From sequence record PQ850601.1: 39,718 bases of DNA. One strand, written 5' to 3'. Shown piece after piece: positions 1 to 39,718 of this stretch. The notes under the pieces were generated by a model. The model was not told where the DNA came from. It was given only the letters and a program-made list of their open reading frames with translations, and made no database searches. Source of the stretch: Escherichia phage ElsieAttenhofer_Bas105. A program made the position numbers and the translations under genes. Position 1 is the first letter of the stretch. Each line of letters opens with the position of its first letter.

Positions 1-195
1 ATGATTGAGTTAGACTTCAAGAATGAGGCCCTTAAAGCCTCTCCTATCGTCGGGACCGCTGCGGCTGATGGTGCCAGTCGGTTCTTCTTCGGACTTACAC
101 TGAACGAATGGTTCTACGTTGCAGCTATAGCGTACACCGTTGTCCAGATTGGTGTGCTAGTCTACAAAACGATTAAAGGAGGTGGTAAAACATGA
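1..195 (+). CDS. Class II holin (T7 gene 17.5 homolog)
   Basis: 64-aa ORF with hydrophobic helices; core FFGLTLNEWFYVAAIAYTVVQIG closely matches remembered T7 gp17.5; GGAGG at 39709-39713 would serve as RBS if the sequence is circular. Confidence 0.85.
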   Translation: MIELDFKNEALKASPIVGTAAADGASRFFFGLTLNEWFYVAAIAYTVVQIGVLVYKTIKGGGKT

Positions 196-455
196 CGCAG
201 ATGGACTTAGAGAAGTTCCTCTTGATGCTAGATACTGAACGTGCTCGACTCATGCTGCAAGACCTGCGGGACGATTCTAAGCGTTCGCCTCAGCTTTACA
301 ACGCCATTGAGAAGCTGCTGGCTCGTCACAACTTTGTGTTAAGCAAGGTGTCTGTGGACGAGAAGACGCTGGCTGATATGGAGGCCCTGAACGCAGAGTA
401 CGATAAGGTGCTCTCCGCTACGGAAGATAATGACACTGGATATGGAGTACAGTAA
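192..455 (+). CDS. Terminase small subunit / DNA maturation protein A (T7 gene 18 homolog)
   Basis: 87-aa ORF; motif LxMLDT...RSPQLYNAIxKLLxRH matches remembered T7 gp18; ATGA overlap with holin stop; position between holin and Rz. Confidence 0.85.
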   Translation: MTQMDLEKFLLMLDTERARLMLQDLRDDSKRSPQLYNAIEKLLARHNFVLSKVSVDEKTLADMEALNAEYDKVLSATEDNDTGYGVQ

Positions 456-459
456 GCGT

Positions 460-512
460 TAGACTCAAGGTCATTACTATATGTAGTGGCCTTTATGGTT
501 AACACTAACTAG
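460..512 (+). promoter_or_regulatory. RNase III-type processing stem-loop (R18.5-like), copy 1 of a conserved element
   Basis: Stem AAGGTCATTAC (467-477) / GTAGTGGCCTT (483-493) with loop TATAT and two G-U pairs; conserved flanks TAGACTCAAGG and TTATGGTTAAC; same element recurs at 9843-9896 and 16779-16825 with compensatory changes. Confidence 0.5.
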
Positions 513-556
513 TGGAGGAGACTCTACGTGAAATCTGATAAACCGGGAGGGCAGCT

Positions 557-1436: not shown

Positions 1437-1607
1437 ATGATTAGAGTTAAATGCTTAAAGTCGGACTCAAATGGGATTCTTGAGGTGGGTTCAGTCTACT
1501 GGGTGGACTCGCTTGAAGACATTGACTCCTATGTGCATATTAGAGGAGGGCGATACATTGGTATGTTCCCCTCTAAGTGGTTTGAACCTAAGGAGGTGAA
1601 GCATTGA
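1437..1607 (+). CDS. Small hypothetical protein (56 aa)
   Basis: Own translation [56 protein letters not shown]; strong RBS AAGAGGGGGAAG upstream; stop overlaps the terminase start. Confidence 0.3.
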
Positions 1608-3367
1608 GTAAAGACTTAGTGGCGCGTCAGGCGCTAATGACTGCACGTATGAAGGCAGACTTCGTGTTCTTCCTGTTCGTCCTGTGGAAAGCTCTGTCAC
1701 TCCCAGTCCCGACTCGCTGTCAGATTGACATGGCGAAGAAACTATCGGCTGGGGACAACAGGCGCTTCATCCTACAGGCGTTCCGTGGTATAGGGAAGTC
1801 CTTTATTACGTGTGCCTTCGTTGTCTGGAAGCTATGGAACAACCCAGACTTGAAGTTCATGATTGTGTCGGCCTCAAAGGAACGAGCTGATGCTAACTCC
1901 ATCTTCATCAAGCGAATCATCGACCTCATGCCTCAGCTTCAGGAACTCAAACCTAAGCAGGGACAGCGAGATGCGGTTATCAGCTTCGACGTCGGACCAG
2001 CCAAGCCAGACCACTCACCTTCGGTTAAGTCCGTTGGTATCACTGGTCAGTTGACTGGTAGTCGTGCTGACATCCTGATTGCCGATGACGTGGAGGTTCC
2101 GAACAACTCAGCGACTCAGGCTGCCCGAGACCGTCTGTCAGAGCTTGTGAAGGAGTTCGACGCTATCCTGAAGCCGGGAGGTACAATCATCTATCTGGGT
2201 ACTCCTCAGAACGAGATGACCTTGTATCGTGAGCTGGAAGGCCGTGGGTACACCACTACTATCTGGCCTGCTCGTTATCCACGCGACAGGAAGGACTGGC
2301 AGTCTTACGGAGACCGTCTGGCTCCCATGCTTCAGGCAGAGCTTGAAGAGGACCCTGAGGCCTTCTATTGGCGTCCGACCGATGAAGTTCGATTCGACGA
2401 TACTGACCTGAAGGAACGTGAGCTGTCCTACGGTAAAGCTGGCTTCGCTCTACAGTTCATGCTTAACCCGAACCTAAGTGATGCTGAGAAGTACCCTCTG
2501 AAGCTCCGTGACCTTATCGTAGCCGACTTGGACCCAGCGTCCAGCCCAATGGTCTACCAATGGTTGCCTAACCCTCAGAACAAGCGTGAGGACGTTCCTA
2601 ACGTTGGACTCATGGGTGACTCATACCACACGTATCAAACTGTAGGTTCTGCCTTCAGTTCGTACACCCAGAAGATTTTGGTCATTGACCCTAGTGGTCG
2701 TGGTAAGGATGAAACTGGCTATGCGGTACTGTACCAGCTCAACGGCTACATCTTCGCTATGGAAGTTGGTGGTATGCGTGGTGGTTATGAAGACTCTACG
2801 CTGGAAGTACTAGCTAAGATTGGTCGTAAGTGGAAGGTCAACGAATACGTCATTGAGGGTAACTTCGGTGATGGTATGTACCTTGAGCTATTCAAGCCTG
2901 TAGCGGCCCGTATCCATCCTGCGGCTGTAACTGAAGTGAAGAGTAAGGGTCAGAAAGAACTCCGAATCTGTGACGTTCTGGAGCCTATCATGGGGTCTCA
3001 CCGACTTATCGTTAACGCTGCTGCTATCGTCCAAGACTACCAGTCGGCCTCTGATAAGGATGGTGTTCGTAACCCTATCTACTCTCTCTTCTACCAGATG
3101 ACACGTATCTCTCGTGAACGTGGAGCCTTGGCACACGATGACCGACTTGACGCGCTGGCTATAGGTGTACAGTTCTTCGTTGAGTCTATGGCTAAGGATG
3201 CCAACAAGGGCGAACGTGAAGTCACTGAGGAGTGGCTGGAGGAACAGATGGAGAACCCACGGAAAGGCTTCGAGTCCATCCACACTGAGTTCTGGGACAA
3301 TGGGGTCCGGGTAACTCACGATACGGACGACGAGCTGGGACTAGGGTCATACGTTACGTTCCACTAG
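1604..3367 (+). CDS. Terminase large subunit (T7 gene 19 homolog), TTG start
   Basis: 587-aa ORF colinear with remembered T7 gp19 ([19 protein letters not shown] Walker A-like, [24 protein letters not shown] nuclease); N-terminal alignment and TAAGGAGG 7 nt upstream support the TTG start at 1604. Confidence 0.95.
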
Positions 3368-3461
3368 CTGAATGAATAATTATAGGTGAAAGCTGCATGA
3401 ATACGCGGTTAGTAACCTATAGTTACTACCAGTCTAACCTACTGTTTTACAAGGAGTTTTG

Positions 3462-3484
3462 ACTTAACTATCACTATAGGGAAG
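3462..3484 (+). promoter_or_regulatory. Phage RNAP promoter (phiOR-like, near right genome end)
   Basis: TTAACTATCACTATAGGGAAG matches the 12-copy promoter consensus; predicted +1 G at 3479. Confidence 0.7.
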
Positions 3485-3664
3485 ACCCCCGGTTACTTAT
3501 AGTATTACTGTAGTGAATATACATATGCAGACTTTATGCAAGACCTTAGGAGGCAGACTCCGAGTTCTTACCTAAGGCTTGCACCGATGGAAGGAGGGTG
3601 ATATTAATCATAATCCCTCCAATACAGATAGTCACCGACCATAGATACAGGAGGTATGTAGCAT

Positions 3665-3823
3665 ATGGCAAAGACCAAAGCTGTACTTAAAGCTCTGGCG
3701 ACCAATCGAGCTACATACAGGTTTCTTGCTGCTGTTCTACTTGCTGCTGGCGTTACTGCTGGAAGTCAGTGGGTCGGGTGGGTCGAGACTCTCGTATGTT
3801 CTCTGGTCTCTCAGTGTAATTAA
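3665..3823 (+). CDS. Small hydrophobic ORF (52 aa), possible gene 19.5-like
   Basis: ATG with GGAGG 10 nt upstream, downstream of the phiOR-like promoter; translation MAKTKAVLKALATNRATYRFLAAVLLAAGVTAGSQWVGWVETLVCSLVSQCN; position only. Confidence 0.25.
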   Translation: MAKTKAVLKALATNRATYRFLAAVLLAAGVTAGSQWVGWVETLVCSLVSQCN

Positions 3824-3982
3824 CGCAATCATGGTAACAATCAACGAAAGTAAGACCTAAGGTCAGTTCATAGCTGACGCTACTCTACTGACCTTAGCTA
3901 CTGTAGTCAAGGACTTTAGGTAACACCTTAAGAGAAACTCACTTAGGGTCATCCTACTTATTGGTCTATCCTAGTGTCGCCT

Positions 3983-4022
3983 GACCTACGGTCCTTGACC
4001 TACAGTGGCTGTGACCTACAGT
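3983..4022. repeat. Three direct copies of TGACCTACRGT in the genome-end region
   Basis: TGACCTACGGT at 3983-3993, TGACCTACAGT at 3996-4006 and 4012-4022; related CTACCTACAGT copies near 4285-4318. Confidence 0.6.
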
Positions 4023-4108
4023 AGTGACGATGAGTTTTGGACCAAAAGTTTGAGACCACATCTCACAGTTCAAGAACCTCAAGTCTCCCCATAGGCCCTC
4101 TTTTAGTC

Positions 4109-4250
4109 CAGACCAATAGTCCCTACCCATAGACCTTTGGTCTACACCTCTAGTCTATCATAAGGTTGGACCGGTTGTCAAGACTTCAGGTCAACTATAG
4201 GTCTAGGCTATGGCTGGAGGTTGGGACGATAGGTAGGGACTATTGGTCTG
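4109..4250. repeat. Perfect 19-bp inverted repeat pair flanking a 104-bp spacer
   Basis: CAGACCAATAGTCCCTACC at 4109-4127; exact reverse complement GGTAGGGACTATTGGTCTG at 4232-4250. Confidence 0.7.
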
Positions 4251-4375
4251 CCTCTGAGTCCCTATCTGTATCAGACCATAAGTCACTACCGAGCTACCTA
4301 CAGTCTAACTACCTACAGTCATCGACCATCGGTAATGCCGCTACCTACTGTATAAATTACCATGATAAACAGTTG

Positions 4376-4404
4376 TTGACAGTAGGTCTAACTTTGGTTT
4401 AATA
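4376..4404 (+). promoter_or_regulatory. Candidate sigma70 early promoter (A1-like)
   Basis: TTGACA at 4376-4381, 17-bp spacer, weak -10 TTAATA/TTTAAT around 4398-4404; first of three TTGACA elements upstream of ocr. Confidence 0.35.
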
Positions 4405-4514
4405 GCTTCCGTCAACACGACACGGCAACAACCGGATAGTGAAGACGCCGGGTCATCCCGGTTAAGTAGACAGCCTGATAAGTCATACGAACAACAGGCA
4501 GATGACAGAAGTAG

Positions 4515-4543
4515 TTGACAAGATGTAAGACTTAAAGTAGTAT
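4515..4543 (+). promoter_or_regulatory. Candidate sigma70 early promoter (A2-like)
   Basis: TTGACA 4515-4520, 17-bp spacer, -10 TAGTAT 4538-4543. Confidence 0.5.
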
Positions 4544-4669
4544 GATTCACCAAGTAGTACAGCGAGCCGGAACTGATAAACTACATCGGCTATGCGGAGT
4601 GACCAGCGCGGATATCTGGTCTACTGAGTAAGACGGTAGGTTACTACAGAGAGCGAGCTAAGAAAGTGA

Positions 4670-4698
4670 TTGACAAGATGGCTTGACTGTAGTAACTT
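4670..4698 (+). promoter_or_regulatory. Candidate sigma70 early promoter (A3-like)
   Basis: TTGACA 4670-4675, 17-bp spacer, -10 TAACTT 4693-4698; shares TTGACAAGATG with the 4515 element. Confidence 0.4.
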
Positions 4699-4898
4699 AT
4701 ACGGCAAGCAAGATTAGTGAGTCCCAACACTGAAACGGGATAGCGCGGCGACGACAGCCAATGCGAATGCTCTTTAACAATCTGGATAAACTCTTAATGT
4801 GCGCCGATAGCGACTAACTACAGGGTCTTTGAGTCTACATCTGAAGGCCCTGACTGATAGTCACTAACATACACAAACAACTTTGAGAGGATATAATT

Positions 4899-5243
4899 AT
4901 GGAACGTAACGCTAACGCATACTATGAGCTGCTGGCTGCAACTGTTGAAGCATTTAACGAGCGCATTCAGTACGACGAAATAGCTGAAGGAGATGATTAT
5001 CACGATGCGCTGCATGAAGTCGTAGACGATATGGTCCCGCACTACTACCACGAGATCTTCACGGTGATGGCTGCTGATGGTATTGACCATGAGTTCGAAG
5101 ACTCTGGGCTGATGCCTGATACCAAGGACGTAACGCGTATACTACAGGCTCGCATTTATGAGGCACTGTATAACGATGTGTCTAATAGCTCTGAGGTGGT
5201 CTGGTTCGAGGCTGAAGAGAGCGACGAGGAGGCCTGCGAGTGA
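4899..5243 (+). CDS. ocr: Ocr-like DNA mimic anti-restriction protein (T7 gene 0.3 homolog)
   Basis: 114-aa highly acidic protein; [43 protein letters not shown] nearly identical to remembered T7 Ocr; first gene after the early promoters. Confidence 0.85.
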
Positions 5244-6276: not shown

Positions 6277-6299
6277 ACTTAACTATCACTATAGGACTC
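6277..6299 (+). promoter_or_regulatory. Phage RNAP promoter upstream of gene 1
   Basis: TTAACTATCACTATAGGACTC; predicted +1 at 6294. Confidence 0.65.
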
Positions 6300-6368: not shown

Positions 6369-9050
6369 ATGAGCGTCATCTCTATTGACAAACACGACTT
6401 CTCTGATGTGTCAAACGCCATTGAGCCGTTTAACCTGCTGGCCGACCACTACGGGCAAGACCTTGCAGTCAAACAGCTTCAGCTTGAGCATGAGGCATAC
6501 ACTGAAGGCGAGCGACGTTTCATCAAGAACCTTGAGCGCCAGACCGAGCGCGGGGAACTGGCAGACAATCAGGTCGCCAAGCCTTTGATGCAGACTCTGG
6601 TTCCTAAGATTGCGCAAGCCGTCAAGGAGTGGCACGAAGGTCCAGACGGGAAGCTGTCAACCTCTCGTCCTAGCGTAGCGTTCACCATGTTGAGTACTGA
6701 AGAGAAGGCCGTCAAGGATCGCTCTCTGCGTATCTCTTGCGAGTCTGCTGCGGTCATCATACTGAAGGTCATCCTCTCCAAGCTGGTCAAGCCTGAAGGG
6801 ATACCGATTACACCGATGGCCTCCGCGATAGGTCGCACACTTGAGGATGAAATCCGATTCGGTCGCATTCGTGACAAGGAGAAGGATCACTTCAAGAAGG
6901 CGATAGCAGATAACCTGAACAAGAGAGCCGGGGCATCATACAAGAAAGCCTACATGCAAGCGGTTGAGACCTCCATGTTGGAGCAAGGTCAACTGGAAGA
7001 TGCGTGGGGGACTTGGAGTCCGACCGAGGCTGTCCACGTTGGAATCAAGATGCTTGAGATTGTCATCCAGTCTACACAACTGGTCGAGCTTAAGCGTTAC
7101 GGTGCTGGCAATGCAGCGGCTGACGTTGAGATGGTCCACCTGTCAGACTTCTGGGTCAAGAAGATGGCACAACGCGGCTTCAGCCTTGCGGGTATCGCTC
7201 CAGTCTACCAACCTTGCGTCGTTCCGCCTAAGCCGTGGACTGGTGTCGTAGGCGGTGGGTACTGGGCCAAAGGTCGCAGACCACTCCCACTGATTCGCTT
7301 AGGGTCTAAGTCAGCGGTGGCACGTTACGAAGACGTGTACATGCCTGAAGTCTATGACGCTGTGAATATCATCCAGAATACGCCTTGGAAAGTTAACAAG
7401 AAGGTTCTGGAAGTGGTGAACATGGTCGAGAAGCTGAACAACACGCCTATTGATGACATACCTCAGATGGAACCGCTGAAGCCTGAGGACTATGCGGGTG
7501 AGACTGAAGAGGAACTCAAGGCATGGAAGAAGGCTGCTGCTGGTATCTACCGCCGAGAGAAGGCCAGGCAGTCACGTAGATTGTCACTGAGCTTTATCGT
7601 TAACCAAGCGAACAAGTTCTCTCAGTTCAAGGCCATCTGGTTCCCGTACAACATGGACTGGCGCGGTCGCGTCTACGCTGTGCCGATGTTCAACCCTCAG
7701 GGTAATGACATGCAAAAGGGTCTCCTGACTCTGGCAGTAGGTAAGCCTATTGGTGCTGATGGTTTCAAATGGCTGAAGGTCCACGGTGCAAACTGTGCGG
7801 GTATTGATAAAGTAACCTTCGAGGAGCGCATCAAGTGGGTGGAAGATAACCACGACAACATCATGGCTACCGCTAAGGCACCGATGGACAGCATTGAGTG
7901 GTGGGGCAAGTTAGACTCTCCGTTCTGCTTCCTAGCGTTCTGCTTCGAGTATGCTGGCGTAATGCATCACGGATTGTCTTACTCCTGCTCGCTGCCGATA
8001 GCATTCGATGGGTCCTGCTCTGGGATTCAGCACTTTAGCGCGATGCTTCGTGATCACATCGGTGGACATGCAGTAAACCTGACGCCTTCCGGTAAGGTAC
8101 AAGACATCTACCGCATCGTGTCTGACCGCATTGAGGAAGAGCTTAAAGTCCTGCTGGTTAACGGCACGGACAACGAGATGGTAACTCACGAGGACAAGAA
8201 AACTGGTGAGATTACCGAGCGTCTCAAACTGGGGACACGAGAACTGGCCCGTCAGTGGCTGACTTACGGTATGTCACGTAAGGTCACTAAGCGTTCAGTC
8301 ATGACTCTGGCCTACGGGTCGAAAGAGTACGGCTTCGCAGACCAAGTATACGAGGACATCGTGATGCCTGCGATTGACTCAGGGTCTGGCGCTATGTTCA
8401 CCGAACCAAGCCAAGCGTCCCGCTTCATGGCTAAGATGATTTGGGAAGCTGTGAGCGTGACCGTAGTTGCTGCGGTTGACGCGATGAAGTGGCTTCAAGG
8501 TGCTGCCAAGCTGCTGGCTGCTGAAGTGAAAGACAAGAAGACTGGAGAAATCCTGAAGCCTTGCCTTCCAGTACACTGGGTAACACCTGATGGGTTCCCG
8601 GTCTGGCAGGAATACCGCAAGAAGGATACCACTCGTCTGAACCTGATGTTCTTAGGGTCATTCAACCTTCAGCCTACCGTCAACAAAGGCACTAAGAAAG
8701 AGCTGGATAAGCACAAGCAGGAGTCAGGCATTAGCCCGAACTTCGTCCACTCACAAGATGGTAGCCACCTCCGCAAGACTGTAGTCCACACTCACCGCAA
8801 GTATGGCGTAATGTCATTCGCAGTGATTCACGATAGCTTCGGGACCATCCCGGCTGACGCTGAGTATCTGTTCCGTGGTGTCCGTGAGACGATGGTCGAG
8901 ACCTACCGCGACAACGATGTGCTGCTGGACTTCTACGAGCAGTTTGAATACCAGCTTCATGAGAGCCAGCGCGATAAGTTGCCAGAGCTTCCGAAGAAAG
9001 GTAAACTGAATATCGAAGACATCTTGTCTTCAGACTTTGCATTCGCTTAA
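6369..9050 (+). CDS. Single-subunit DNA-directed RNA polymerase (T7 gene 1 homolog)
   Basis: 893-aa ORF colinear with remembered T7 RNAP (FNPQGNDMxKGLLTLA, motif C VIHDSFGT, C-terminal SDFAFA); specificity-loop region reads GSFNLQPTVNKGTKKELDKHKQ. Confidence 0.97.
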   Translation: MSVISIDKHDFSDVSNAIEPFNLLADHYGQDLAVKQLQLEHEAYTEGERRFIKNLERQTERGELADNQVAKPLMQTLVPKIAQAVKEWHEGPDGKLSTSRPSVAFTMLSTEEKAVKDRSLRISCESAAVIILKVILSKLVKPEGIPITPMASAIGRTLEDEIRFGRIRDKEKDHFKKAIADNLNKRAGASYKKAYMQAVETSMLEQGQLEDAWGTWSPTEAVHVGIKMLEIVIQSTQLVELKRYGAGNAAADVEMVHLSDFWVKKMAQRGFSLAGIAPVYQPCVVPPKPWTGVVGGGYWAKGRRPLPLIRLGSKSAVARYEDVYMPEVYDAVNIIQNTPWKVNKKVLEVVNMVEKLNNTPIDDIPQMEPLKPEDYAGETEEELKAWKKAAAGIYRREKARQSRRLSLSFIVNQANKFSQFKAIWFPYNMDWRGRVYAVPMFNPQGNDMQKGLLTLAVGKPIGADGFKWLKVHGANCAGIDKVTFEERIKWVEDNHDNIMATAKAPMDSIEWWGKLDSPFCFLAFCFEYAGVMHHGLSYSCSLPIAFDGSCSGIQHFSAMLRDHIGGHAVNLTPSGKVQDIYRIVSDRIEEELKVLLVNGTDNEMVTHEDKKTGEITERLKLGTRELARQWLTYGMSRKVTKRSVMTLAYGSKEYGFADQVYEDIVMPAIDSGSGAMFTEPSQASRFMAKMIWEAVSVTVVAAVDAMKWLQGAAKLLAAEVKDKKTGEILKPCLPVHWVTPDGFPVWQEYRKKDTTRLNLMFLGSFNLQPTVNKGTKKELDKHKQESGISPNFVHSQDGSHLRKTVVHTHRKYGVMSFAVIHDSFGTIPADAEYLFRGVRETMVETYRDNDVLLDFYEQFEYQLHESQRDKLPELPKKGKLNIEDILSSDFAFA

Positions 9051-9827: not shown

Positions 9828-9845
9828 ACTATCACTATAGGATTA
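9823..9845 (+). promoter_or_regulatory. Phage RNAP promoter (phi1.1-like)
   Basis: CTAAACTATCACTATAGGATT; predicted +1 at 9840. Confidence 0.7.
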
Positions 9846-9896
9846 GACTCAAGGTCATGACTCAAAGTCGTGGCCTTCATGATTAACCCTAACTCA
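9843..9896 (+). promoter_or_regulatory. RNase III-type processing stem-loop (R1.1-like), copy 2
   Basis: Stem AGGTCATGAC (9852-9861) / GTCGTGGCCT (9867-9876), loop TCAAA, two G-U pairs; conserved flanks as in copy 1. Confidence 0.5.
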
Positions 9897-29568: not shown

Positions 29569-29575
29569 CTTATTG

Positions 29576-29625: not shown

Positions 29626-29644
29626 AAGGTTATAAGGAGACTTT

Positions 29645-30115
29645 ATGTATATTCGCAAGGCTACGGAACCAGATGTCCACTACTTTCTGTGGCATCTTTC
29701 AGCAGATGATGTTAATGAGTGCAAAGCAAACTACGGGTCAACAGTGGGTCTCTCTGAAAGACTGCTTAAGCACCTATCTCCGTCATCTGTGGTTTTAACG
29801 AACGGTGTAGGCGAAGTGTTTGCCTATGGTGGAAACCAAGGGGATAACGTATGGTTCTTGACTTCCGGTCTGGTATATAAGCTGAGACCTAAAGAGAAGC
29901 GGGAGTTCATAAAGTGTATCTCTGAGTACAGGGACTTAATGTTAGACCAATACGGGACCATCTGGAACTACGTGTGGTCAGGCAATAAGTCTCACATTAA
30001 ATTCTTGAAGTTGCTTGGCGCTAAATTCCATGATAATTGGACTGTAAGCCCGGTAACTGGTGAGCGTTTTCAACTATTCACTATCTCTAAGGAGGACGTA
30101 TGTGCGAGCCAGTAA
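29645..30115 (+). CDS. Gene 13-position protein (T7 gp13 is needed for virion assembly and infectivity)
   Basis: 156-aa ORF between tail tube B and internal virion protein B; assignment by synteny only. Confidence 0.55.
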   Translation: MYIRKATEPDVHYFLWHLSADDVNECKANYGSTVGLSERLLKHLSPSSVVLTNGVGEVFAYGGNQGDNVWFLTSGLVYKLRPKEKREFIKCISEYRDLMLDQYGTIWNYVWSGNKSHIKFLKLLGAKFHDNWTVSPVTGERFQLFTISKEDVCASQ

Positions 30116-30687
30116 GTATCGGCATGGGTATTATGGCTGTAGCTGGTGCCGCTATGTCCGCTTCTAGTCAGGCCAAAGCTGAGGGTGCTGCTATCGACGC
30201 CCAGAACCGTCAGGCTCAGGAGATGGTTAAGCAGATGAACTACTCTGACGCCAACCTGAAGATGCAGGAGCGAGACCTGAAGGAACAGCAGATGGCTGAA
30301 CTGACAGAGACCACTCTCAACGGTATCCGCAATCAGGGTATGGTCAGAGCTGCGGTAGCTGAGTCAGGTCTGGAAGGTAACTCTATGGACAGGATTGAAC
30401 GTCAGGTCAAAGGAGATACAGTCAAGGAGCGAGCAGGGATTACCGAAAGTTACAACCGTGACTATGCGGCTATCTTCGGGAACCGTATCGCCAACATTGA
30501 GAACACCAAGTCTGCTATCCGTGGTCAAGGTAAAATCATCAAGACCAGCCCACTGGCTCATGCACTTAATGTTGCTAACGCCGGGATGCAGGGGTACATT
30601 GCTGGTGAGTCAATCTCTGGGGCATCAAGCTCTGGTGGGTCTGCGCCAATTAGTGCTGCTAAAGGCACACCTACAGGTCATAGCTAA
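30100..30687 (+). CDS. Internal virion protein B (T7 gene 14 homolog)
   Basis: 195 aa; starts MC like T7 gp14; GNSMDRIERQ, ESYNRDYAAIFG, SAAKGTPTG match remembered T7 gp14. Confidence 0.85.
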   Translation: MCEPVSIGMGIMAVAGAAMSASSQAKAEGAAIDAQNRQAQEMVKQMNYSDANLKMQERDLKEQQMAELTETTLNGIRNQGMVRAAVAESGLEGNSMDRIERQVKGDTVKERAGITESYNRDYAAIFGNRIANIENTKSAIRGQGKIIKTSPLAHALNVANAGMQGYIAGESISGASSSGGSAPISAAKGTPTGHS

Positions 30688-30698
30688 GAGGAGGACTA

Positions 30699-32981
30699 AT
30701 GGCTAGTAATATTGAATCAGCTCTGGCTAATCGGACTATGGGTCGTGGCAGAGCGCCGGGTAAAACTATCGCTGTCAACTATCAAGCAGCCAACGTACAG
30801 GCTCCTACTGGCGACTCTGGGCTGGCTCGTGCGCTAACTAACTTCGTTGAGTCTGGTACTGGATTGTACAAGCAGTTCAAGGACGAGGAGAAGACCAGAG
30901 CTGACGAGCGGTCTAACGAGATTATCCGTAAGATGACACCTCAGCAAAGACGTGAGGCTATCCAGAACGGCACACTGCTGTATCAGGACGACCCTTACGC
31001 TATGGAAGCACTTCGAGTCAAGACGGGCCGTAACGCTGCCTTTGCGGTGGATGACGAGATTAACGTTAAGATTCAGAACGGTGAGTTCCGTACACGTCAG
31101 GACATGGAAGAGTATCGCCACCAGCGACTTCAGGACGCCGCTAAGTCCTATGCTGAAGAGGCGGGAATTAACCCTACCGATGAGTTCTTCCAGCGCGGGT
31201 TCAACGATAACATCACAGACCGCAACATCGCTATCTATGGGTCTTTCAATAAGTATTTCAGCAAGCAGTCTGAAGAGACAGCAATGTTGAACACCCGTAT
31301 TGAGATGAACTCATTCCTGAACGATGGCGACCTGATGCGTTCACCTGAGTCTGGCAAGACCTTCATGGCCTACCTTCGTGATGGACTAACTACTGCTGCT
31401 ATCCCCTCGGACCAGCGAGCACGAGAGGTCATCACCCAGACGGTCCGTGACGCAATCCAGAAGTCAGGAGGCTCAAACTTCCTACAGCAAGTACGAGGCG
31501 AGCGAATCACCCTTAACGGTGTGGATGCTACAGTCGAAGAGATTGTAGGACCTGATGTCTTCAACGCTGCTATTGTTGAGGCACAAGGGACTGAGTACAA
31601 GCTGGTGGCTAAGTATCAGGAAGACTTAGCGTTAGGCGTTCAGTCTGCGATTCTTCAGGATGACCCAACCATTGGTCTTGCCCAGATTCAGAAACTCAAG
31701 GAGCAGAACAACCTACTTCAGCCGGGTGAAGAACTCACGCCTCAGCGTCAGATGCTTATTAACGCCGAAGCCAGCTTACTGGAAGCGGTCAAGCGTAAGT
31801 CTGCTGAACAGGCGAAGGAGAACACTAAGTTAATCCAGACCCAGAACAAGCAACTGGTCATCGACCAAGTGTATCAGCGACGTCTGGCTGGGGACAACGT
31901 GTCCACCAACTATGAGGACCTTCCGGTCTCAGATGCTACAGGCGAGTTCAAACGTTCGGACATGAACAACTATGCGGCTGCCAAGCTACAGCAGATTGAC
32001 CAGATGGACACCCCTGAGGCTGCTAAAGACGCTCAGAAGGTGGCATTGTTAAGAGCTGACACTAACAACGGTCCGTTCCGTAATGCCTTCCAGACGCTGA
32101 CTCAGGACGCTGCTGGTGAGTGGCAAGCTGCGGTCATCCGTGGACAGTACGACCCAGACAAGATGCAACGCTTCGAATCTCTTCGTCGTGCCTACACTCA
32201 GGACCCTTCAAGTTTTGCTGCGCTGTATCCGGACCAAGCTCAGTTGTTCTCTACGTTCGACCAGATGGACAAGATGGGTCTGGACCCTCAGACGATGATT
32301 GAAGCTGATAAGCAAGCTGCAAGTCAAAGCCGTGAGATGCGCATGGAGTCAGACAAGGCATGGCAGGAGTTGAAGAACGACTCCAAGAACACCCAGTTGT
32401 CTCGCCTCCCAACGTCTCTGGACTCAAGTGCTCGTAAGGTCTGGGACTCATGGTACTATCGTACAGGTAACGCTGACGCTGCAACGCAGCAGACTCAACG
32501 CTGGCTGAATGAGAACACCGTAACGTTCCGGTCTGAAGGTTCTGACGGTAAGTCAATAGGTATGGTGTCCAAGCACCAGCTTATGGTCGGGGATAACCCA
32601 GAGTCGTGGCAGGTGGGTCGAGACATTATCGACACCGCTCGTCAGCAGCTCATTAAGGCCAACCCTTGGGTAGTGAACTCTCAGTTGTCCGTTGTTGAAC
32701 AGAACGGCTCTATCTTCCTCCAAGACGCTACAGGGACTATTCGTATTCGATACGATAAAGAACTTGTAGGTAAACTCTACCGCGAACAACAGCAGAAGGC
32801 ACAAGATGCCGCATATGCTCAGGCAGAACGTGACGCTAACAAGCGAGCGCGTATCGTCGGGACTAAAACTGCTGGTGACAAACGTCGAGCTGACCGAGAG
32901 GCCAACATCGAGAAGCGTGGTGGGATGTACAATGACGTCTCACTGGAGGGTATCGCAAAAGTACTAATTGGTAAGGAGTAA
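30699..32981 (+). CDS. Internal virion protein C (T7 gene 15 homolog)
   Basis: 760 aa; ADERSNEIIRKMTPQQRREAIQNGTLLYQDDPYAMEALRVKTGRNAAFAVDD nearly identical to remembered T7 gp15. Confidence 0.93.
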   Translation: MASNIESALANRTMGRGRAPGKTIAVNYQAANVQAPTGDSGLARALTNFVESGTGLYKQFKDEEKTRADERSNEIIRKMTPQQRREAIQNGTLLYQDDPYAMEALRVKTGRNAAFAVDDEINVKIQNGEFRTRQDMEEYRHQRLQDAAKSYAEEAGINPTDEFFQRGFNDNITDRNIAIYGSFNKYFSKQSEETAMLNTRIEMNSFLNDGDLMRSPESGKTFMAYLRDGLTTAAIPSDQRAREVITQTVRDAIQKSGGSNFLQQVRGERITLNGVDATVEEIVGPDVFNAAIVEAQGTEYKLVAKYQEDLALGVQSAILQDDPTIGLAQIQKLKEQNNLLQPGEELTPQRQMLINAEASLLEAVKRKSAEQAKENTKLIQTQNKQLVIDQVYQRRLAGDNVSTNYEDLPVSDATGEFKRSDMNNYAAAKLQQIDQMDTPEAAKDAQKVALLRADTNNGPFRNAFQTLTQDAAGEWQAAVIRGQYDPDKMQRFESLRRAYTQDPSSFAALYPDQAQLFSTFDQMDKMGLDPQTMIEADKQAASQSREMRMESDKAWQELKNDSKNTQLSRLPTSLDSSARKVWDSWYYRTGNADAATQQTQRWLNENTVTFRSEGSDGKSIGMVSKHQLMVGDNPESWQVGRDIIDTARQQLIKANPWVVNSQLSVVEQNGSIFLQDATGTIRIRYDKELVGKLYREQQQKAQDAAYAQAERDANKRARIVGTKTAGDKRRADREANIEKRGGMYNDVSLEGIAKVLIGKE

Positions 32982-32985
32982 CATA

Positions 32986-35900
32986 ATGGCGACTCGTGGT
33001 ATTCGCAATAACAATCCGGGGAACATCCGGGTAAGTAAGGACCAATGGGAAGGAATGACTGGAGATGATGGCGCATTCGTCACCTTCGATAGTCCAGAGT
33101 CTGGCGTCCGAGCTTTAGGTAAAAACCTGCTGTCCTACGGTCGCCAAGGTTATGACTCCATCGAGAAGATTATCAACCGATGGGCCCCTCCTAACGAGAA
33201 CGACACTCAGGCTTATATTGACTCAGTGGTGGCTGCGACTGGTATCCCAGCTACCCAGAGTCTAGACCTCTCGAACCCGGACACACTGTCTTCTCTGGCG
33301 CAAGCTATCAGCTTCCATGAGACAGGCTCCCGGTACGACCCTGAAGTCTATCAGCAGGGAGTCGCAAGAGCACTCAACGGTATCAGCCCAAAGACTCCAC
33401 CAGTAAGCGCTAACGTATTTGACGCACTCACGGAAGGACTCAAGTCTAAACCTAAAGTAGCTCTGGGTGAGAAACTTCCGACCGCTGCTGGTCTGAACAT
33501 TGAGGGTCAAGCACCTGAAGCTCCCAACGAATCGTTCGGTGAGATGTTCTATAAGGCTACTGGAGAGACCATGCAGGAACGAGAGGACCGCTCTACGTGG
33601 TTCGGTTTCGGTGCGGCTACAGAAGCTGAAGTGAAGAACTCTATGGTCGGCGTGGCTATACGGGCTGGTCAGACTGAGGACTCACTGGATGTCATTGGCG
33701 ATGTGTTCAACCCAACCAGATGGAACAACCATAAGTGGACTCGTGAAGAGCTTGACCAGATTCGTAACGCTGGGGTTCTGCCTCAGTATTACGGAGTAAT
33801 TACTGGCGGTTCTCCTCAGAATCTGACAGAGCTGATAAACTTGGCGCTGGAGAACCAGAAGTTGGACCAAGAGAAGGCCAAGGCTGGGACTGGCGCTCAA
33901 CTGGCGGCTGGCGTGATTGGTGCTGGCGTGGACCCTCTGACCTACGTTCCTATTGCTGGGCAGGTAGGCAAAGGTGGGAAGCTAATCAACAAGATGTTCA
34001 CTGTGGCTGCTCAGTCTGGCGCTCTGGCTGGTGTGTCTGAGGTGGCCCGTACCTCAGTGGCTGGTGGTGATGCTCATGTGGCTGAAGCTATCCTTGGTGG
34101 TGCTCTCTTCGGTGGTGGCATGACCGCTATCGGGGACGTTATCGGCAAGGCCCTAGGCAAGTCAACCAATGAGTTCGCTGGGCCAGCAACACGTCTGGAA
34201 GCTCGTGAGACTGCACGTAATGTTGACGGTCAGGATCTGTCTCGTCTACCTATTCAGGAAGGTGAGCAGACCTTTAGTCATCAAGGTGTTAAGTTCGCAG
34301 ACGTTCCGAACGAGCCGGGTAGTGTACGACTGGAAGATGGTTCAATCCTGATTGGTGAGAACCCTCTGAACCCTAAGACACGTCAAGTCTTTGACGAAGT
34401 GATTGAGCCGGAACGTGCCGCTGCTGGTGTGAACCTTGGTGGACTTACCGAGATTGGTCTAAAGCTCCTGAGGTCTGAGAACCCTGAGATTCGAGGACTT
34501 GCAGCTGACTTGGTGCGCTCACCCACAGGTATGCAATCTGGTTCGAGCGGTAAGATTGGGACCACCTCGTCAGACGTATTCGAGCGACTTCGTGCAGTTG
34601 ACCATAGGTTCTACAACGACATTGACGATGCTGTGACTCAGGCACTGAAGGACCCATACTTCCAGACAAACTTCAACCGTGACAATAAGTCGTTCCGTCA
34701 GGACATCTACCAGCGCGTAGCTCTGGCGATTGAAGATGGAAGTGGGAACCTGAAGGCTGAGCTGACTCCGGGTGAGCTGAAGGTCTATGACCTGCTGAAG
34801 AACCAGTTCGACGCTAAGCGTGAGATGATGGAGAACCCTGCGATGTTCGGTCGAGCTGACGCTCAGTCTATCTTCCCCGGTAGCCGCTTCAAGGGAACCT
34901 ACGTTCCTCACGTTTACAGCAACCAGATGAAGCAACTGTTCATCAATGAGCTGGGAAGCCCTGAGGCTCTACAGGAGGCCATCAAGAAGTCGTGGCTAGC
35001 GAGCTATGCGTCACGACCTGAGGTTAAGGCGCGAGTGGATGCAATGTTAGCTGAGCAGCTTCAGGCTACACAGAAGGCAGCAGGTAAGACTTCAGGTCAA
35101 ACTACCAGTCAACGAGCTTCGGTTAGTGAGGCAAGTTACCAGATGAAACTGGATGATGCAGCTACTCGTGCGGCTGATAATGTTGCGGAACTGAACGATG
35201 TACTGACTAACGCTGAGAAGCGTGTGGCAGACCATGAGAAGAAGCTTCAAAACTCCAAGGATAGACTTGCGTCCCATGAGGCCAAACTTAAGGAGCTTGA
35301 GGAGCAACTGGAAGCTAAGCCTAATAGCAAGACCCTTCCTGTTAAGATTGAGAGCCGGAAGCGGATGATTGAGACACAGCAGTCTCATGTCCGTGTGAAT
35401 ACCGAGCGTCTCGACTACGCGAATGCCCAAGCTGCTAAGGTTCGAGACCGAATTGCCAAGGCTACTAGTGAGTACGAAGCAGTCGCAGCCGCAGCTAAAG
35501 GTACCAAACCAGTGGTTGATAACGATACAGCTCCAACTGGAGAGGCGACTTCCGGTGCAGAACCGAATGTAGCCCCTGAGGTAACGATGGCTATGGTTGA
35601 GAAGTACGCCAACGATAAAGCTTATGGTATATCACACTCTGACGTCTTTGAGCGCTCATCCGTAATGGAGGAAAACATCAATGGTCTCGTAGGCTTGGAG
35701 AACAATAACTTCCTTGAGGCTCGTAACCTGTTTGACAGCGATATGGAAATCGTGTTGCCTAACGGTCAGCCGTTCAGTGTTAACAGCCTCCGTGAGTGGG
35801 ATATGGACAAGATTATCCCAGCATATAACCGTCGAGTAAATGGTGATATTGCTATCATGGCTGGTACAGGTAAGACCACGAAGGAAGTGAAGGATGCCGT

Positions 35901-37374
35901 AGAGACCCTGATGAACCGCGCTGGTGATGACGGTAAGTTGAAGGATGAGGTGTCGACTCTGCGTGACACCCTTAAGATTCTGACTGGTCGCGCTCGACGT
36001 GATGGTGCTGACGATGCTGCGTTCGCTACCGTGATGCGTACCATGACTGACCTGTCCTTCTTCGCTAAGAATGCCTACATGGGTGTTCAGAACTTGACGG
36101 AGATTGGCGGTATGCTGGCCCGTGGTAACGTCCGTGCGATGTTGCATGGCATTCCAATATTCCATGACCTAGCCTTCCGTAACAAGAAGATGGGAGCCTC
36201 GGAGATTAAGGACCTGCACAATGTTATCTTCGGTAAGGAACTGGATGACTCAATCCGTCCGTCAAAACAGGATGTCATAGACCGCCTACGAGCTTACAGC
36301 GCCCTGAGCAAACCTACAGCTACGGCTTTAGGATCTGCCAAGTATTACACTGGTGAACTTGCAGTACGCTCTCCGTTCACTAAAGTCCTCAACGGTACGA
36401 CCAACTACCTGTTAGATGCTGGACGTCAAGGCTTCCTGTCTGACATCGTGGAGCATAGCCTGACTGGTAGTAAGCGTAAGTTCGATGACCGCTGGCTGAA
36501 GACCGCTGGTATCTCTGACGAGCAGTGGAAAGGCATTAAGTCCATAATCCGTGAGTCAGTGACTCGTGGTCCAGACGGGAAGTATACCATCAAGGATAAG
36601 AAGGCGTTCAGTCAGGACCCAAGGGCTATGGACCTGTGGCGTATGGGTGACACCATCGCTGACGAAACGTTACTCCGGCCTCATAAGCTGTCAAACATGG
36701 ACGCCAAGGCTTATGGCCCTCTCGCTAAGACTGTCCTTCAGTTTAAGAACTTCGTCATCAAGTCCATCAATGGGCGAACCATGCGAACCTTCTATAACGC
36801 CACGAAGAACAACCGAGCGATTGACGCTGCCCTGTCCACTGTGATGTCTATGGGTCTTGCTGGTATCTACTACATGGCTCAGGCGCACGTCAAGGCTTAC
36901 GCTATGCAGGATGGTCGAGACCGTGACTACCTCAAGCAAGCTCTGGACCCGACGATGATTGGATATGCTGCTCTATCACGTAGTTCACATCTTGGTGGAC
37001 CACTTGGGGTAGCTAACATTCTGGGTGGTATCGCTGGGTACGAGGACACTAAGATGCTCCGTTCGTCTATCCTCCCGCGTTCACCTACAGAGAAGCCTGA
37101 ACGGGCCATCGCGTATGGTGCAGCTACAAGTGACCCTGTGATGAATGTTGTTGGTAACTTCTTGGAGCAGGTTCCAGCTTTCGGATATGCTGCTAACGTT
37201 GGCGCTTCGGCTTACAACTTGGCTGGCTACCTCAAGGCTGATACTCGTGTCAACGAGCGTGACTACATGACCGGGATGTATAATACGTTCCGTGAACTGG
37301 TTCCGAACGACCCCATTACCCAGAAGCTGTTGCTTGGAACGTTTGAGGAGCAAGGCATCCACATCAAGGACTAA
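32986..37374 (+). CDS. Internal virion protein D (T7 gene 16 homolog) with non-canonical N-terminal domain and a coiled-coil insertion
   Basis: Start placed at ATG 32986 (AAGGAG RBS; the track ORF begins upstream at 32968 inside gene 15); central and C-terminal regions colinear with remembered T7 gp16 (SRPEVKARVD, VEKYANDKAYGISHSD, FLEARNLFDSD, YNRRVNGDIAIM, NGTTNYLLDA); N-terminal 140 aa lack the SLT motif; about 150 extra residues near nt 35090-35580. Confidence 0.92.
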   Translation: MATRGIRNNNPGNIRVSKDQWEGMTGDDGAFVTFDSPESGVRALGKNLLSYGRQGYDSIEKIINRWAPPNENDTQAYIDSVVAATGIPATQSLDLSNPDTLSSLAQAISFHETGSRYDPEVYQQGVARALNGISPKTPPVSANVFDALTEGLKSKPKVALGEKLPTAAGLNIEGQAPEAPNESFGEMFYKATGETMQEREDRSTWFGFGAATEAEVKNSMVGVAIRAGQTEDSLDVIGDVFNPTRWNNHKWTREELDQIRNAGVLPQYYGVITGGSPQNLTELINLALENQKLDQEKAKAGTGAQLAAGVIGAGVDPLTYVPIAGQVGKGGKLINKMFTVAAQSGALAGVSEVARTSVAGGDAHVAEAILGGALFGGGMTAIGDVIGKALGKSTNEFAGPATRLEARETARNVDGQDLSRLPIQEGEQTFSHQGVKFADVPNEPGSVRLEDGSILIGENPLNPKTRQVFDEVIEPERAAAGVNLGGLTEIGLKLLRSENPEIRGLAADLVRSPTGMQSGSSGKIGTTSSDVFERLRAVDHRFYNDIDDAVTQALKDPYFQTNFNRDNKSFRQDIYQRVALAIEDGSGNLKAELTPGELKVYDLLKNQFDAKREMMENPAMFGRADAQSIFPGSRFKGTYVPHVYSNQMKQLFINELGSPEALQEAIKKSWLASYASRPEVKARVDAMLAEQLQATQKAAGKTSGQTTSQRASVSEASYQMKLDDAATRAADNVAELNDVLTNAEKRVADHEKKLQNSKDRLASHEAKLKELEEQLEAKPNSKTLPVKIESRKRMIETQQSHVRVNTERLDYANAQAAKVRDRIAKATSEYEAVAAAAKGTKPVVDNDTAPTGEATSGAEPNVAPEVTMAMVEKYANDKAYGISHSDVFERSSVMEENINGLVGLENNNFLEARNLFDSDMEIVLPNGQPFSVNSLREWDMDKIIPAYNRRVNGDIAIMAGTGKTTKEVKDAVETLMNRAGDDGKLKDEVSTLRDTLKILTGRARRDGADDAAFATVMRTMTDLSFFAKNAYMGVQNLTEIGGMLARGNVRAMLHGIPIFHDLAFRNKKMGASEIKDLHNVIFGKELDDSIRPSKQDVIDRLRAYSALSKPTATALGSAKYYTGELAVRSPFTKVLNGTTNYLLDAGRQGFLSDIVEHSLTGSKRKFDDRWLKTAGISDEQWKGIKSIIRESVTRGPDGKYTIKDKKAFSQDPRAMDLWRMGDTIADETLLRPHKLSNMDAKAYGPLAKTVLQFKNFVIKSINGRTMRTFYNATKNNRAIDAALSTVMSMGLAGIYYMAQAHVKAYAMQDGRDRDYLKQALDPTMIGYAALSRSSHLGGPLGVANILGGIAGYEDTKMLRSSILPRSPTEKPERAIAYGAATSDPVMNVVGNFLEQVPAFGYAANVGASAYNLAGYLKADTRVNERDYMTGMYNTFRELVPNDPITQKLLLGTFEEQGIHIKD

Positions 37375-37392
37375 ACTATCACTATAGGAAAC
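37370..37392 (+). promoter_or_regulatory. Phage RNAP promoter (phi17-like)
   Basis: ACTAAACTATCACTATAGGAAAC; +1 at 37387. Confidence 0.75.
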
Positions 37393-37438
37393 TGGAGGCG
37401 CTACCATAGGTCTCCGTTTAAATCACAAAGGAGGCATA

Positions 37439-39625
37439 ATGTCCACGATTACACAATTCCCTTCAGGAAACACTCAGTACAGGATTGAGTTCGACTACCT
37501 AGCCAGAACGTTTGTTGTTGTTACGCTGGTGAATAGCTCTAACCCTACCCTGAACCGTGTAATGGAAGTTGGTCGAGATTACCGATTCCTTAATCCAACG
37601 ATGATTGAGATGTTGGTTGACCAATCAGGTTTCGACATCGTTCGTATTCACCGTCAGACTGGAACTGACTTAGTGGTAGACTTCAGGAATGGCTCAGTGT
37701 TGACAGCTAGTGACCTGACCAATGCAGAGCTTCAGGCTATCCATATTGCAGAAGAAGGTCGAGACCAAACTGTTGACTTAGCGAAGGAATATGCAGATGC
37801 TGCTGGTAGCTCTGCCGGCAACGCTAAGGATAGCGAGGACGAAGCAAGACGAATCGCTGCGAGTATCAAGGCAGCTGGTCTATTTGGATATATTACCCGT
37901 CGCTCCTTCGAGACAGGCTTCAACGTTACAGCATGGAACGAGGCCCTGCTATGGGAAGAGGATGGTGATTATTACCGCTGGGATGGTACGCTTCCAAAGA
38001 ACGTTCCTGCTGGTTCAACTCCTGAAACGTCTGGTGGCATTGGGTTAGGGGCGTGGGTCAGTGTTGGTGATGCTTCATTGAGAAGTGATTTGGCCCTAAC
38101 CACAGGCGCAGGTCGAGTTGGTACAACATCCGGCAGGACCGTACAGGCAGAGTTTGATATCCTCAAAATGGGATACAAGACGCCTGATGACTTTGGCGCA
38201 AAAGGAGATGGAAGCACAGACGACACCAATGCCATATTAGATGCCTGTTCGTGGGCCTCAACCAACGGACTGCCACTTAGAATTCCATGCAAAACATATG
38301 TTTGGAATGGCGACACTATACCATACGATAATGTGGCCATTATTGGCGATAAGCGGCCCTATGCAGATTCATGGCTAACACGTCTTCTTGATGGCAGCAT
38401 TATCGTCGGTACGCTCAGATTTAGTGGCAAAAACGTACAAATCAGCAATATTGGAGTCGATCACGGTTCGTTCCGGTTCCCATCTATAGCTGGTGATGCT
38501 CTCACCGTCTCAGCTCCTGAAAAATCAGGGCAGTATTGCGTTATAAGAAACTGCATTGGGCTGGGACGAAATCCAACCGATGCATTTCACTCTATTCTGG
38601 TGGAGGGTTATAAATATTCAATTATTGAAGATTGCATAGGCATACAGAATACATATAGCCTCGCGCACAAAAGTGGTTATTCAATCACGAATAATATAAT
38701 ATCCAGAAACTCAAACACAGGTGTTATTGTTAAATCTGATAGTGCATTTGGTGATGCCAGTTTCTCTAATATTACCAATATTACCATTGATGGAAATGAA
38801 AACTGCAATATTGGCTTGTGGGTTTTTGCGCAAGACGCTCAACTACAGAAGGTTAATGTATCGAATATTGTAACGTCTGGATGTAAATACGACATGGTGG
38901 TGCAGTCTGATACTGGCGTCATCAATGAAATTAACATTAACAATCTGGCAAGCTCTGGAGCGTCCATAGCGTCACTAGCACTGGTGGCTAATGCAGCCGA
39001 TAAAATATACACCGTAAACATATCAAATGTTTCAGCTGGCGAAGTTACTGGGCAAATTATTGATGCACAGGCGGCTAATTTGCTAAACATATCTAATGTG
39101 AACGGGCGAATTACTAGTGAATCTACCCACGTTAATGACTCTATAAAGATAGGACCATTAGTCAATGTTTCAAATCTTGTTAATATCACACCAACTTTGA
39201 ACTATGACCTTGTCTCTCAGGCTGGAGTGACTTTTAACAACGCTTTTGACAAGAACAGCATCAGTAATGTTCGCGCTGCGATATATGGAAGCGGCGCGCC
39301 GCGACCCGGGTATGCAACACAGGATGCAAGCGGTGATTCTGGAGTGCTTTCGGTAAGATACAGCCAGACAAACTCGTCATTCCTAAAGCTAACGCTTCCG
39401 TCAGGAGCAGCTGAGATAGCTACCATAAACACAACAGCCATCAATGGTTCGGTAATACCTGAAGGGTATGTTTTATGGATACAAAACGCCACCGCCGGGC
39501 AAAACCTAACGATAACGCCTTCTACTGCTGGTCATATCGTTACAACCGGGAATACTGCAAAGGTGTTAGCTGGCGGTGATAAGGTTGGGTTTATGTTTGA
39601 TGGGAGCACCTGGATTCAGATGTGA
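37439..39625 (+). CDS. Tail fiber / tailspike: T7 gp17-like N-terminal adaptor fused to a pectate-lyase-fold (beta-helix) depolymerase-like domain
   Basis: 728 aa; N-terminal 150 aa align with remembered T7 gp17 (YLARTFVVVTLV, DYRF, VDFRNGSVLTASDLTNAELQAIHIAEEGRD); central region carries the hallmark DFGAKGDGSTDDTNAI and repetitive N/S/T/V-rich beta-helix rungs. Confidence 0.9.
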   Translation: MSTITQFPSGNTQYRIEFDYLARTFVVVTLVNSSNPTLNRVMEVGRDYRFLNPTMIEMLVDQSGFDIVRIHRQTGTDLVVDFRNGSVLTASDLTNAELQAIHIAEEGRDQTVDLAKEYADAAGSSAGNAKDSEDEARRIAASIKAAGLFGYITRRSFETGFNVTAWNEALLWEEDGDYYRWDGTLPKNVPAGSTPETSGGIGLGAWVSVGDASLRSDLALTTGAGRVGTTSGRTVQAEFDILKMGYKTPDDFGAKGDGSTDDTNAILDACSWASTNGLPLRIPCKTYVWNGDTIPYDNVAIIGDKRPYADSWLTRLLDGSIIVGTLRFSGKNVQISNIGVDHGSFRFPSIAGDALTVSAPEKSGQYCVIRNCIGLGRNPTDAFHSILVEGYKYSIIEDCIGIQNTYSLAHKSGYSITNNIISRNSNTGVIVKSDSAFGDASFSNITNITIDGNENCNIGLWVFAQDAQLQKVNVSNIVTSGCKYDMVVQSDTGVINEININNLASSGASIASLALVANAADKIYTVNISNVSAGEVTGQIIDAQAANLLNISNVNGRITSESTHVNDSIKIGPLVNVSNLVNITPTLNYDLVSQAGVTFNNAFDKNSISNVRAAIYGSGAPRPGYATQDASGDSGVLSVRYSQTNSSFLKLTLPSGAAEIATINTTAINGSVIPEGYVLWIQNATAGQNLTITPSTAGHIVTTGNTAKVLAGGDKVGFMFDGSTWIQM

Positions 39626-39718
39626 TCGCAGTTTGTGGAGGTAGAGGCTAACTACACGCTGACCAACGTATGGTAACAACTTTGGGTCACGGACGACCCG
39701 CTTTAAACTGGAGGTTTT

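Follow-up and report, generated by a model that had tools for sequence, protein, structure and literature searches.

The 39,718-nucleotide (nt) DNA of Escherichia phage ElsieAttenhofer_Bas105 (PQ850601.1), referred to below over its whole length as the window, was analyzed with respect to the completeness of the genome and the position of its physical ends. The most probable reading, to which we assign a probability of about 0.9, is that the window (39,718 bp) holds the complete genome of a lytic Kayfunavirus, a podophage of the T7 family, as a single unit in which the copies of the direct terminal repeat (DTR) were merged by assembly and the circle was re-opened at the holin start codon. The virion DNA would then be a linear, non-permuted molecule of ~39,921 bp, with the sequence 4061–4263 at both ends. 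T7-type virion DNA has unique, non-permuted ends and a short direct repeat, and nothing in the window suggests permuted virion DNA. The preliminary description had called the window a circularly permuted T7-like genome. Its complete, T7-like character was borne out, but the phage is K1F-like rather than T7, and the "circular permutation" is a property of the deposited, assembled record and not of the virion DNA.

A search against ~50,700 phage records (August 2025 phage collection) returned hundreds of Studiervirinae. The closest DNA matches were Kayfunavirus (K1F-like) coliphages, with 92–95% identity and 85–92% coverage of each window half. Overall nucleotide similarity to the best records was ~83%, which is within the genus level (about 70% or more) and below the 95% species cut-off. 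Judged by these matches, the phage is a Kayfunavirus (K1F-like) and not T7 itself, and it is a new member, probably at species level, of a kind that is already very well known. The GC content of the window is 50.2%, and its size is typical of the genus (38.9–40.6 kb).

The genome ends were placed by multiple alignment of the reconstructed concatemer junctions of six reference phages, namely T7 (V01146), K1F (DQ111067), EcoIv39_Milel (OX460914, Kayfunavirus sp.), Mt1B1_P3 (MT496969), and the Citrobacter phages SH3 and SH4 (KU687349 and KU687350). The exact DTR lengths of these references are 160 (T7), 178 (K1F), 202 (Milel), 202 (Mt1B1_P3), 184 (SH3), and 191 bp (SH4). All six records carry both repeat copies, and in all six the first repeat base, which is base 1 of the genome, aligned to window position 4061, with ACCACA to the left of the boundary and TCTCACAGT to the right. 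In the window itself, the sequence reads ...GAGACCACA up to this boundary and TCTCACAGTTCAAG after it. The last repeat base aligned to 4263 in four of the six references (T7, Milel, Mt1B1_P3, and SH4), to 4262 in K1F, and to 4267 in SH3, and the right boundary abutted a conserved ATCTGT in every one of them. As in phages with fixed-end packaging of the T7 type, the window thus contains a repeat homologous to those of its relatives with conserved boundaries, identical on the left in 6/6 references and within 5 nt on the right. Furthermore, the right end and the left end of K1F mapped colinearly onto window 3312–4286, and phiYIO1-1, HC12, YZ1, LS2, LS3, and ECG4 are among many records whose first base matches position 4061. 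Among IMG/VR viral contigs, the left-boundary sequence had a single match, in a 39,444-bp contig. For SH3–SH5, the ends are known from run-off sequencing of virion DNA, in which the signal drop is followed by an untemplated A (PMC4925675). The same paper gives the K1F repeat as 179 bp; the exact DTR in the K1F record is 178 bp.

From this alignment, the left end is predicted at 4061 and the right end at 4263 (range 4262–4267), in a non-permuted virion DNA of about 39,921 bp with fixed ends. This DNA would start at 4061 (TCTCACAGTTCAAG...), run through 39718 and then from position 1, and finish at ~4263 (...CTCTGAGTCCCT). Both predicted ends fall inside the interval of about 3,500–4,300 that had been proposed for the termini. 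Because the frame TCTCACAGT ... ATCTGT(A/T) is conserved out to T7, sequence alone is enough to locate the ends of a Kayfunavirus genome to within a few bases.

On the + strand of region 3368–4898, the elements are arranged in the order phiOR-like promoter, gene 19.5, short repeats, terminal repeat, ATCTGTA, short repeats, and TTGACA region, followed by ocr (4899). The gap between gene 19.5 and ocr can thus be read as the concatemer junction together with the early promoters, and not as a place of "missing genes". Its non-coding features are as follows.

3458–3482, + strand: phage RNA polymerase (RNAP) promoter, positional equivalent of T7 phiOR, with +1 near 3479, about 582 nt upstream of the terminal repeat
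3982–4022, + strand: three short direct repeats TGACCTAC(A/G)GT (TGACCTACAGT), just left of the terminal repeat
4061–4263, no strand assigned: direct terminal repeat, single copy, 203 bp, aligned to the six reference concatemer junctions
4264–4270, + strand: ATCTGTA, aligned column by column with ATCTGTT, the class II pause/termination motif of the T7 concatemer junction
4293–4355, + strand: three short direct repeats (G/A)CTACCTAC(A/T)GT (CTACCTACAGT), just right of the terminal repeat and analogous to the T7 CCTAAAG arrays at 175–341
4376–4700, + strand: early host-RNAP promoter region, with TTGACA hexamers at 4376, 4515, and 4670

The motif CCTACAGT was enriched in the window (10 found versus 1.7 expected), and 4 of the 10 occurrences flank the terminal repeat. 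In the early promoter region, a simple sigma-70 scan passed only 4515–4543, at 10/12, and window 4376–4528 was 94% identical to K1F 427–581. The T7 pause motif, ATCTGTT (Lyakhov et al.; He et al.), is directly visible in the T7 sequence after its repeat. The variant ATCTGTA was common to all five Kayfunavirus references. In T7, the class II concatemer-junction pause/termination signal adjoins the repeat, and its role has been described (bioRxiv 10.64898/2026.02.12.705533).

Several points weigh against the reading of the window as a complete unit with ends at 4061 and 4263. The end positions and the second repeat copy are placed by homology only, the window repeat is only 81–87% identical to the repeats of the relatives, and it holds a 24-nt cassette with no exact match elsewhere. 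In addition, the right boundary differs by up to 5 nt among the references, and the pause-like ATCTGTA, a candidate signal for a K1F-type RNAP, matches the T7 motif at 6/7 positions. The genome could be complete and T7-like with termini that lie off the homology positions, through a longer or shorter repeat or a shift of more than a few bases, still within the gap between gene 19.5 and ocr. Such a displacement would agree with the range of DTR lengths (160–202 bp) and of right boundaries (4262–4267 in window coordinates) among the references, with the cassette that is the window repeat's own, and with the record of phage GA2A, in which the two annotated repeat copies differ in length (165 and 197 bp). 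Against it, the left boundary is invariant in all six references, distant T7 included, and the right boundary adjoins the conserved ATCTGT in each of them. We consider displaced ends unlikely, and keep to ends at the homology positions.

The 24-nt cassette lies within the terminal repeat at 4127–4150 and carries a small hairpin, TAGACC-TTT-GGTCTA, which resembles the T7 repeat hairpin GTCAACC-TTC-GGTTGAC. The cassette is missing in K1F and SH3, and in Milel and Mt1B1_P3 an unrelated sequence is found in its place. No exact match to it was found in IMG/VR viral contigs or in the fetched loci of relatives. Instead of being neutral indel variation, the cassette could be a functional exchangeable element that tunes how the replication machinery or the terminase recognizes the junction, but this strikes us as very improbable.

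A perfect 11-bp inverted repeat was observed at 3857–3867/3887–3897 (CTAAGGTCAGT and ACTGACCTTAG, with a 19-nt spacer), about 165–205 nt left of the terminal repeat. This inverted repeat may have a connection with the hairpin intermediate through which the T7 ends have been proposed to be duplicated. We also tried to map the T7 "hairpin intermediate" site onto the window, and make no claim from this attempt, as the T7 position was unconfirmed and no equivalent inverted repeat was found in T7.

The closure of the circle was examined with a 1,400-nt query composed of window 39019–39718 and 1–700, which was aligned to relatives. With many of these, it aligned in one piece from about 39618 (gene product 17 [gp17] stop) through the join to position 700, with 801 query nt against 797–803 record nt at 95–96% identity. 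Since relatives align across the join in a single piece, nothing is missing or duplicated at 39718→1. A second copy of the terminal repeat, or an assembly overlap, was sought in the window and not found; the longest direct repeats were promoters and two 52-nt sites resembling RNase III sites. The terminal repeat is therefore present once, as no direct repeat exceeds 52 nt, and the TCTCACAG-type repeat has its sole occurrence in the whole window at 4061. The window opens exactly at a start codon. By chance, this would happen in ~0.1% of cases (about 50 gene starts per 39,718 positions), and the record was therefore deliberately re-opened at the holin ATG.

The gene content was determined by tblastn with 55 T7 proteins. 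Homologues of 17.5, 18, 18.5/18.7, 19, 19.5, 0.3, 1, 1.1, 1.3, 1.6, 1.7, 1.8, 2, 2.5, 3, 3.5, 4, 5, 5.5, 5.7, 6, 6.5, 6.7, 7.3, and 8–17 were found in cyclic T7 order, all on the + strand, and a PHROG search supplied two more, gene 1.2 and a gene-7-like host-range protein. In the same tblastn search with the T7 proteome, no homologue was detected of T7 genes 0.4–0.7 (0.7 being the protein kinase), 1.4, 1.5, 4.3–4.7, 5.3, 5.9, and 6.3. These genes are all non-core, and the K1F annotation names none of them except for one open reading frame (ORF) labelled 0.6. The genes identified are listed below in window coordinates.

1–195, + strand: gene 17.5, class II holin of 64 amino acids (aa), on whose ATG the window opens; Pfam PF10746 "Phage holin T7 family", E 2e-22; 70% identical to T7 gp17.5 over aa 1–54
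192–455, + strand: gene 18, small terminase (DNA maturation protein A), 52% identical to T7 gp18 and annotated as small terminase in relatives
557–1009, + strand: gene 18.5 (Rz-like i-spanin), 52% identical to T7 gp18.5
about 675–920, + strand: gene 18.7 (o-spanin), embedded in 18.5, 55% identical to T7 gp18.7
1604–3367, + strand: gene 19, large terminase, 65.6% identical to T7 gp19 over 575 aa
3665–3823, + strand: gene 19.5 homologue, 52 aa; tblastn to T7 gp19.5, E 5e-4; annotated at the same position in CR44b, SH3, and SH4
4899–5243, + strand: gene 0.3, Ocr DNA-mimic antirestriction protein; Pfam PF08684, E 9e-33; 63% identical to T7 gp0.3
6369–9050, + strand: gene 1, single-subunit RNA polymerase, 62% identical to T7 gp1 across all 883 aa
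10099–10350, + strand: gene 1.2, dGTPase inhibitor (PHROG)
10350–11465, + strand: gene 1.3, DNA ligase, T7 homologue (tblastn)
12459–14548, + strand: genes 2.5 (single-stranded DNA-binding protein) and 3 (endonuclease I), a 163-aa ORF, and gene 3.5 (amidase/lysozyme)
14856–16556, + strand: gene 4, primase/helicase, 62% identical to T7 gp4A
16835–17236, + strand: HNH homing endonuclease (T7 7.7-like); Pfam PF13392, E 7e-17
17227–19395, + strand: gene 5, DNA polymerase, 56% identical to T7 gp5
19377–22448, + strand: genes 5.5, 5.7, 6 (exonuclease), 6.5, 6.7, 7-like, and 7.3
22460–32981, + strand: genes 8 (portal), 9 (scaffold), 10 (capsid), 11, 12 (tail tube), 13, 14, and 15 (core), from tblastn with T7 proteins
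32986–37374, + strand: gene 16, internal virion protein D, 1462 aa, with an in-frame insertion of ~165 aa
37439–39625, + strand: gene 17, tailspike, with a T7 adaptor N-terminus and a pectate-lyase-like depolymerase
39710–39714, + strand: holin Shine-Dalgarno GGAGG

The window ends with ...AAACTGGAGGTTTT directly before the holin ATG, i.e., GGAGG followed by four T as a 4-nt spacer, and in relatives, too, this intergenic stretch runs directly into the holin gene. The early observation that the window begins at the holin ATG and closes with its Shine-Dalgarno sequence was thus correct, as was the statement that every T7 core gene from 0.3 through 19 is present in cyclic order on one strand. The early region encodes a single-subunit RNA polymerase, as in T7-type genomes (Autographiviridae, Studiervirinae), and gp18 and gp19 form a T7-type terminase pair. 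Gene 19 starts with TTG, behind AAGGAGGT, and its product of 587 aa is equal in length to the Mt1B1_P3 terminase. The HNH gene is located directly upstream of the DNA polymerase start, which it overlaps, and is 84% identical to 7.7B of CR44b, which occupies the same position there.

We also considered that the window might be a chimeric or mis-closed assembly, or a unit that lost some sequence at the join or at the collapsed repeat. Closure and repeat collapse are indeed assembly products, and gp17, the gp16 insertion, and ORF 1002–1424 are unusually distributed among relatives. However, the join aligned gap-free to many relatives, the repeat junction was colinear with the right and left ends of K1F, no essential gene was missing, and at 39.7 kb the window is of a usual size for the genus. 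Tailspike module swaps and insertions of homing endonucleases or accessory genes are, moreover, normal in this group. An assembly error is therefore extremely unlikely. True headful packaging of circularly permuted DNA, with no fixed ends in the window, has a next to negligible probability. Nothing speaks for it except that the record takes the form of a permuted circle. In place of a pac-type or headful terminase without a fixed repeat, the window has a terminase 65.6% identical to T7 gp19 and a K1F/T7-type DTR with conserved boundaries and flanking short repeats, and where the ends of K1F-like phages were determined by experiment, short DTRs were found (PMC4925675).

The single complete unit is coded strictly on one strand, as had been claimed. 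ORFs on the + strand span 88.7% of the window. A codon log-odds model was trained on nine large genes and applied to all minus-strand ORFs of at least 60 aa. All 84 of these scored ≤ +0.015 bits/codon (mean −0.31), compared to mostly +0.1 to +0.7 for the + strand genes, and the long minus-strand ORFs sit wholly within + strand genes. Minus-strand genes were therefore rejected; the largest candidate (24153–24728, 191 aa) had no Pfam hit, and all 84 failed the codon test. The phage promoter core AACTATCACTATAGG was matched 12 times with at most 2 mismatches, each time on the + strand (0.08 matches expected by chance). The annotated relatives K1F, Mt1B1_P3, GA2A, CR44b, SH3, and SH4 also code on one strand. 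Searches of both strands of the window for tRNAs and for Rfam families found none.

One perfect phage-RNAP promoter core was observed at 6281–6295, about 75 nt upstream of gene 1, where it would permit autogenous transcription of this gene. CR44b has a promoter annotated at the same place, and none is annotated there in T7. The two 52-nt copies (459–510 and 9843–9894) are 85% identical, with the pattern TTAGACTCAAGGTCAT...GGCCTT.ATG.TTAAC.CTAACT, and are intergenic, one after gene 18 and the other before gene 1.1. Their position and hairpin-like form suggest that they are candidate RNase III processing sites like those of T7.

Three parts of the genome are unusually distributed among the relatives. 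The first is the in-frame gp16 insertion of ~165 aa (about 35056–35577), which is helical and charged and is reflected in a gp16 of 1462 aa compared to 1295 aa in K1F. None of T7, K1F, Milel, Mt1B1_P3, GA2A, CR44b, SH3, and SH4 has the insertion. Similar DNA was found in only 19 phage records, at 76–82% identity, including Kosakonia Kc166A, ST31, PH1061, ZH4, and some Klebsiella phages. An intein or homing element was considered here and rejected, as full-length gp16, including the insertion, had no Pfam hit at E ≤ 0.01, and no intein or endonuclease domain was detected in it.

The second part is the tailspike. The Pfam matches of gp17 (PF03906, PF18668, PF12708, and PF25692) correspond to a T7 adaptor N-terminus, a TSP1/Gp66 N domain, a pectate-lyase-like depolymerase, and a depolymerase C-terminal beta-sandwich. 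Residues 88–728 are 84% identical to the tail fibre of KarinMuster_Bas82, a 58.5-kb phage, with the next best match at 53%, and Kayfunavirus relatives share only the first ~270–300 aa. This receptor-binding module has been exchanged with a phage whose genome, at 58.5 kb, is of a very different size. The third part is a small accessory gene.

1002–1424, + strand: accessory ORF between 18.5 and 19, 140 aa, phrog_17779, unknown function

Homologues of this ORF were found in only 26 phage records, among them CLB_P1 (96%), P762 (89%), and Providencia EPr2 (57%), with about 33% identity in 72-kb Salmonella and 52-kb Aeromonas phages. The CLB_P1 homologue is annotated as "putative protease". The ORF was absent from all eight reference loci.

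By analogy with T7 biology, replication would yield head-to-tail concatemers with one repeat per junction. The procapsid-bound gp18/gp19 terminase would cut at fixed sites on either side of the junction repeat, which would be duplicated during maturation. Transcription from the phiOR-like promoter (3458–3482) through the junction to ATCTGTA (4264–4270) may assist end formation via RNAP pausing, as at the T7 junction. The DNA would be injected from the left end (4061) and its genes expressed from left to right. Host RNAP at the early promoters (about 4376–4700) would produce Ocr and the phage RNAP, and the latter would then read the 12 + strand promoters.

The main value of these results lies in annotation. 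The organization, the collapsed repeat, and the end positions are all expected and raise no new biological question. The record could be rotated to open at 4061, its biological start, and with the repeat restored it would have the true virion length of ~39.9 kb.

Of the known systems, K1F (Kayfunavirus, Studiervirinae) has the same gene order and single-strand organization as the window, and the gp16 flanks are 93–95% identical in protein. Its right- and left-end non-coding regions are colinear with the window, at 95% and 90% identity over 3312–4260. K1F shares the left boundary, between ACCACA and TCTCACAGTTCAAGAACC, and has ATCTGTA directly after the repeat, as in the window. The K1F repeat is 178 bp compared to 203 bp in the window because K1F lacks the 24-nt cassette. 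K1F also differs in its endosialidase tailspike, in contrast to the pectate-lyase-type tailspike of the window, and in a longer 0.3 gene. In the annotation, its DNA polymerase gene is a join of two pieces, and an ORF for a homing endonuclease lies within the span, whereas in the window the HNH gene lies upstream of gene 5. Unlike K1F, the window has the gp16 insertion of ~165 aa and the extra ORF between 18.5 and 19.

In the records of Milel and Mt1B1_P3, the DTR is exact over 202 bp, and its ends fall on window 4061 and 4263 in the alignment. Both phages carry an insertion at the same place in the repeat, but with an unrelated cassette sequence (CGTTACTGCTCCTTGCAGTCACAG versus CATAGACCTTTGGTCTACACCTCT), and the sequence just right of the repeat differs from that of the window. 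SH3 and SH4 are K1F-like phages with measured ends. Their left end aligns to 4061; the right end of SH4 aligns to 4263 and that of SH3 4 nt further, to 4267. Their repeats (184 and 191 bp), hosts, and tail fibres are different from those of the window phage.

The more distant T7 has the same junction layout as the window, CCTAAAG arrays and pause signal included. Its 160-bp DTR starts with TCTCACAGT and is followed by ATCTGTT, and phiOR (at 39229) lies about 550 nt (549 nt) upstream of the right repeat, compared to about 582 nt in the window. Short repeat arrays flank the T7 repeat, host promoters and then gene 0.3 follow, and all genes are on one strand, as in the window. T7 belongs to a different genus (Teseptimavirus) with a different promoter consensus, and its 0.7 kinase and many of its small genes are absent from the window. 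The T7 CCTAAAG arrays are much longer than the short repeats of the window, the pause motif differs at its last base, and the T7 core proteins are 35–77% identical to those of the window.

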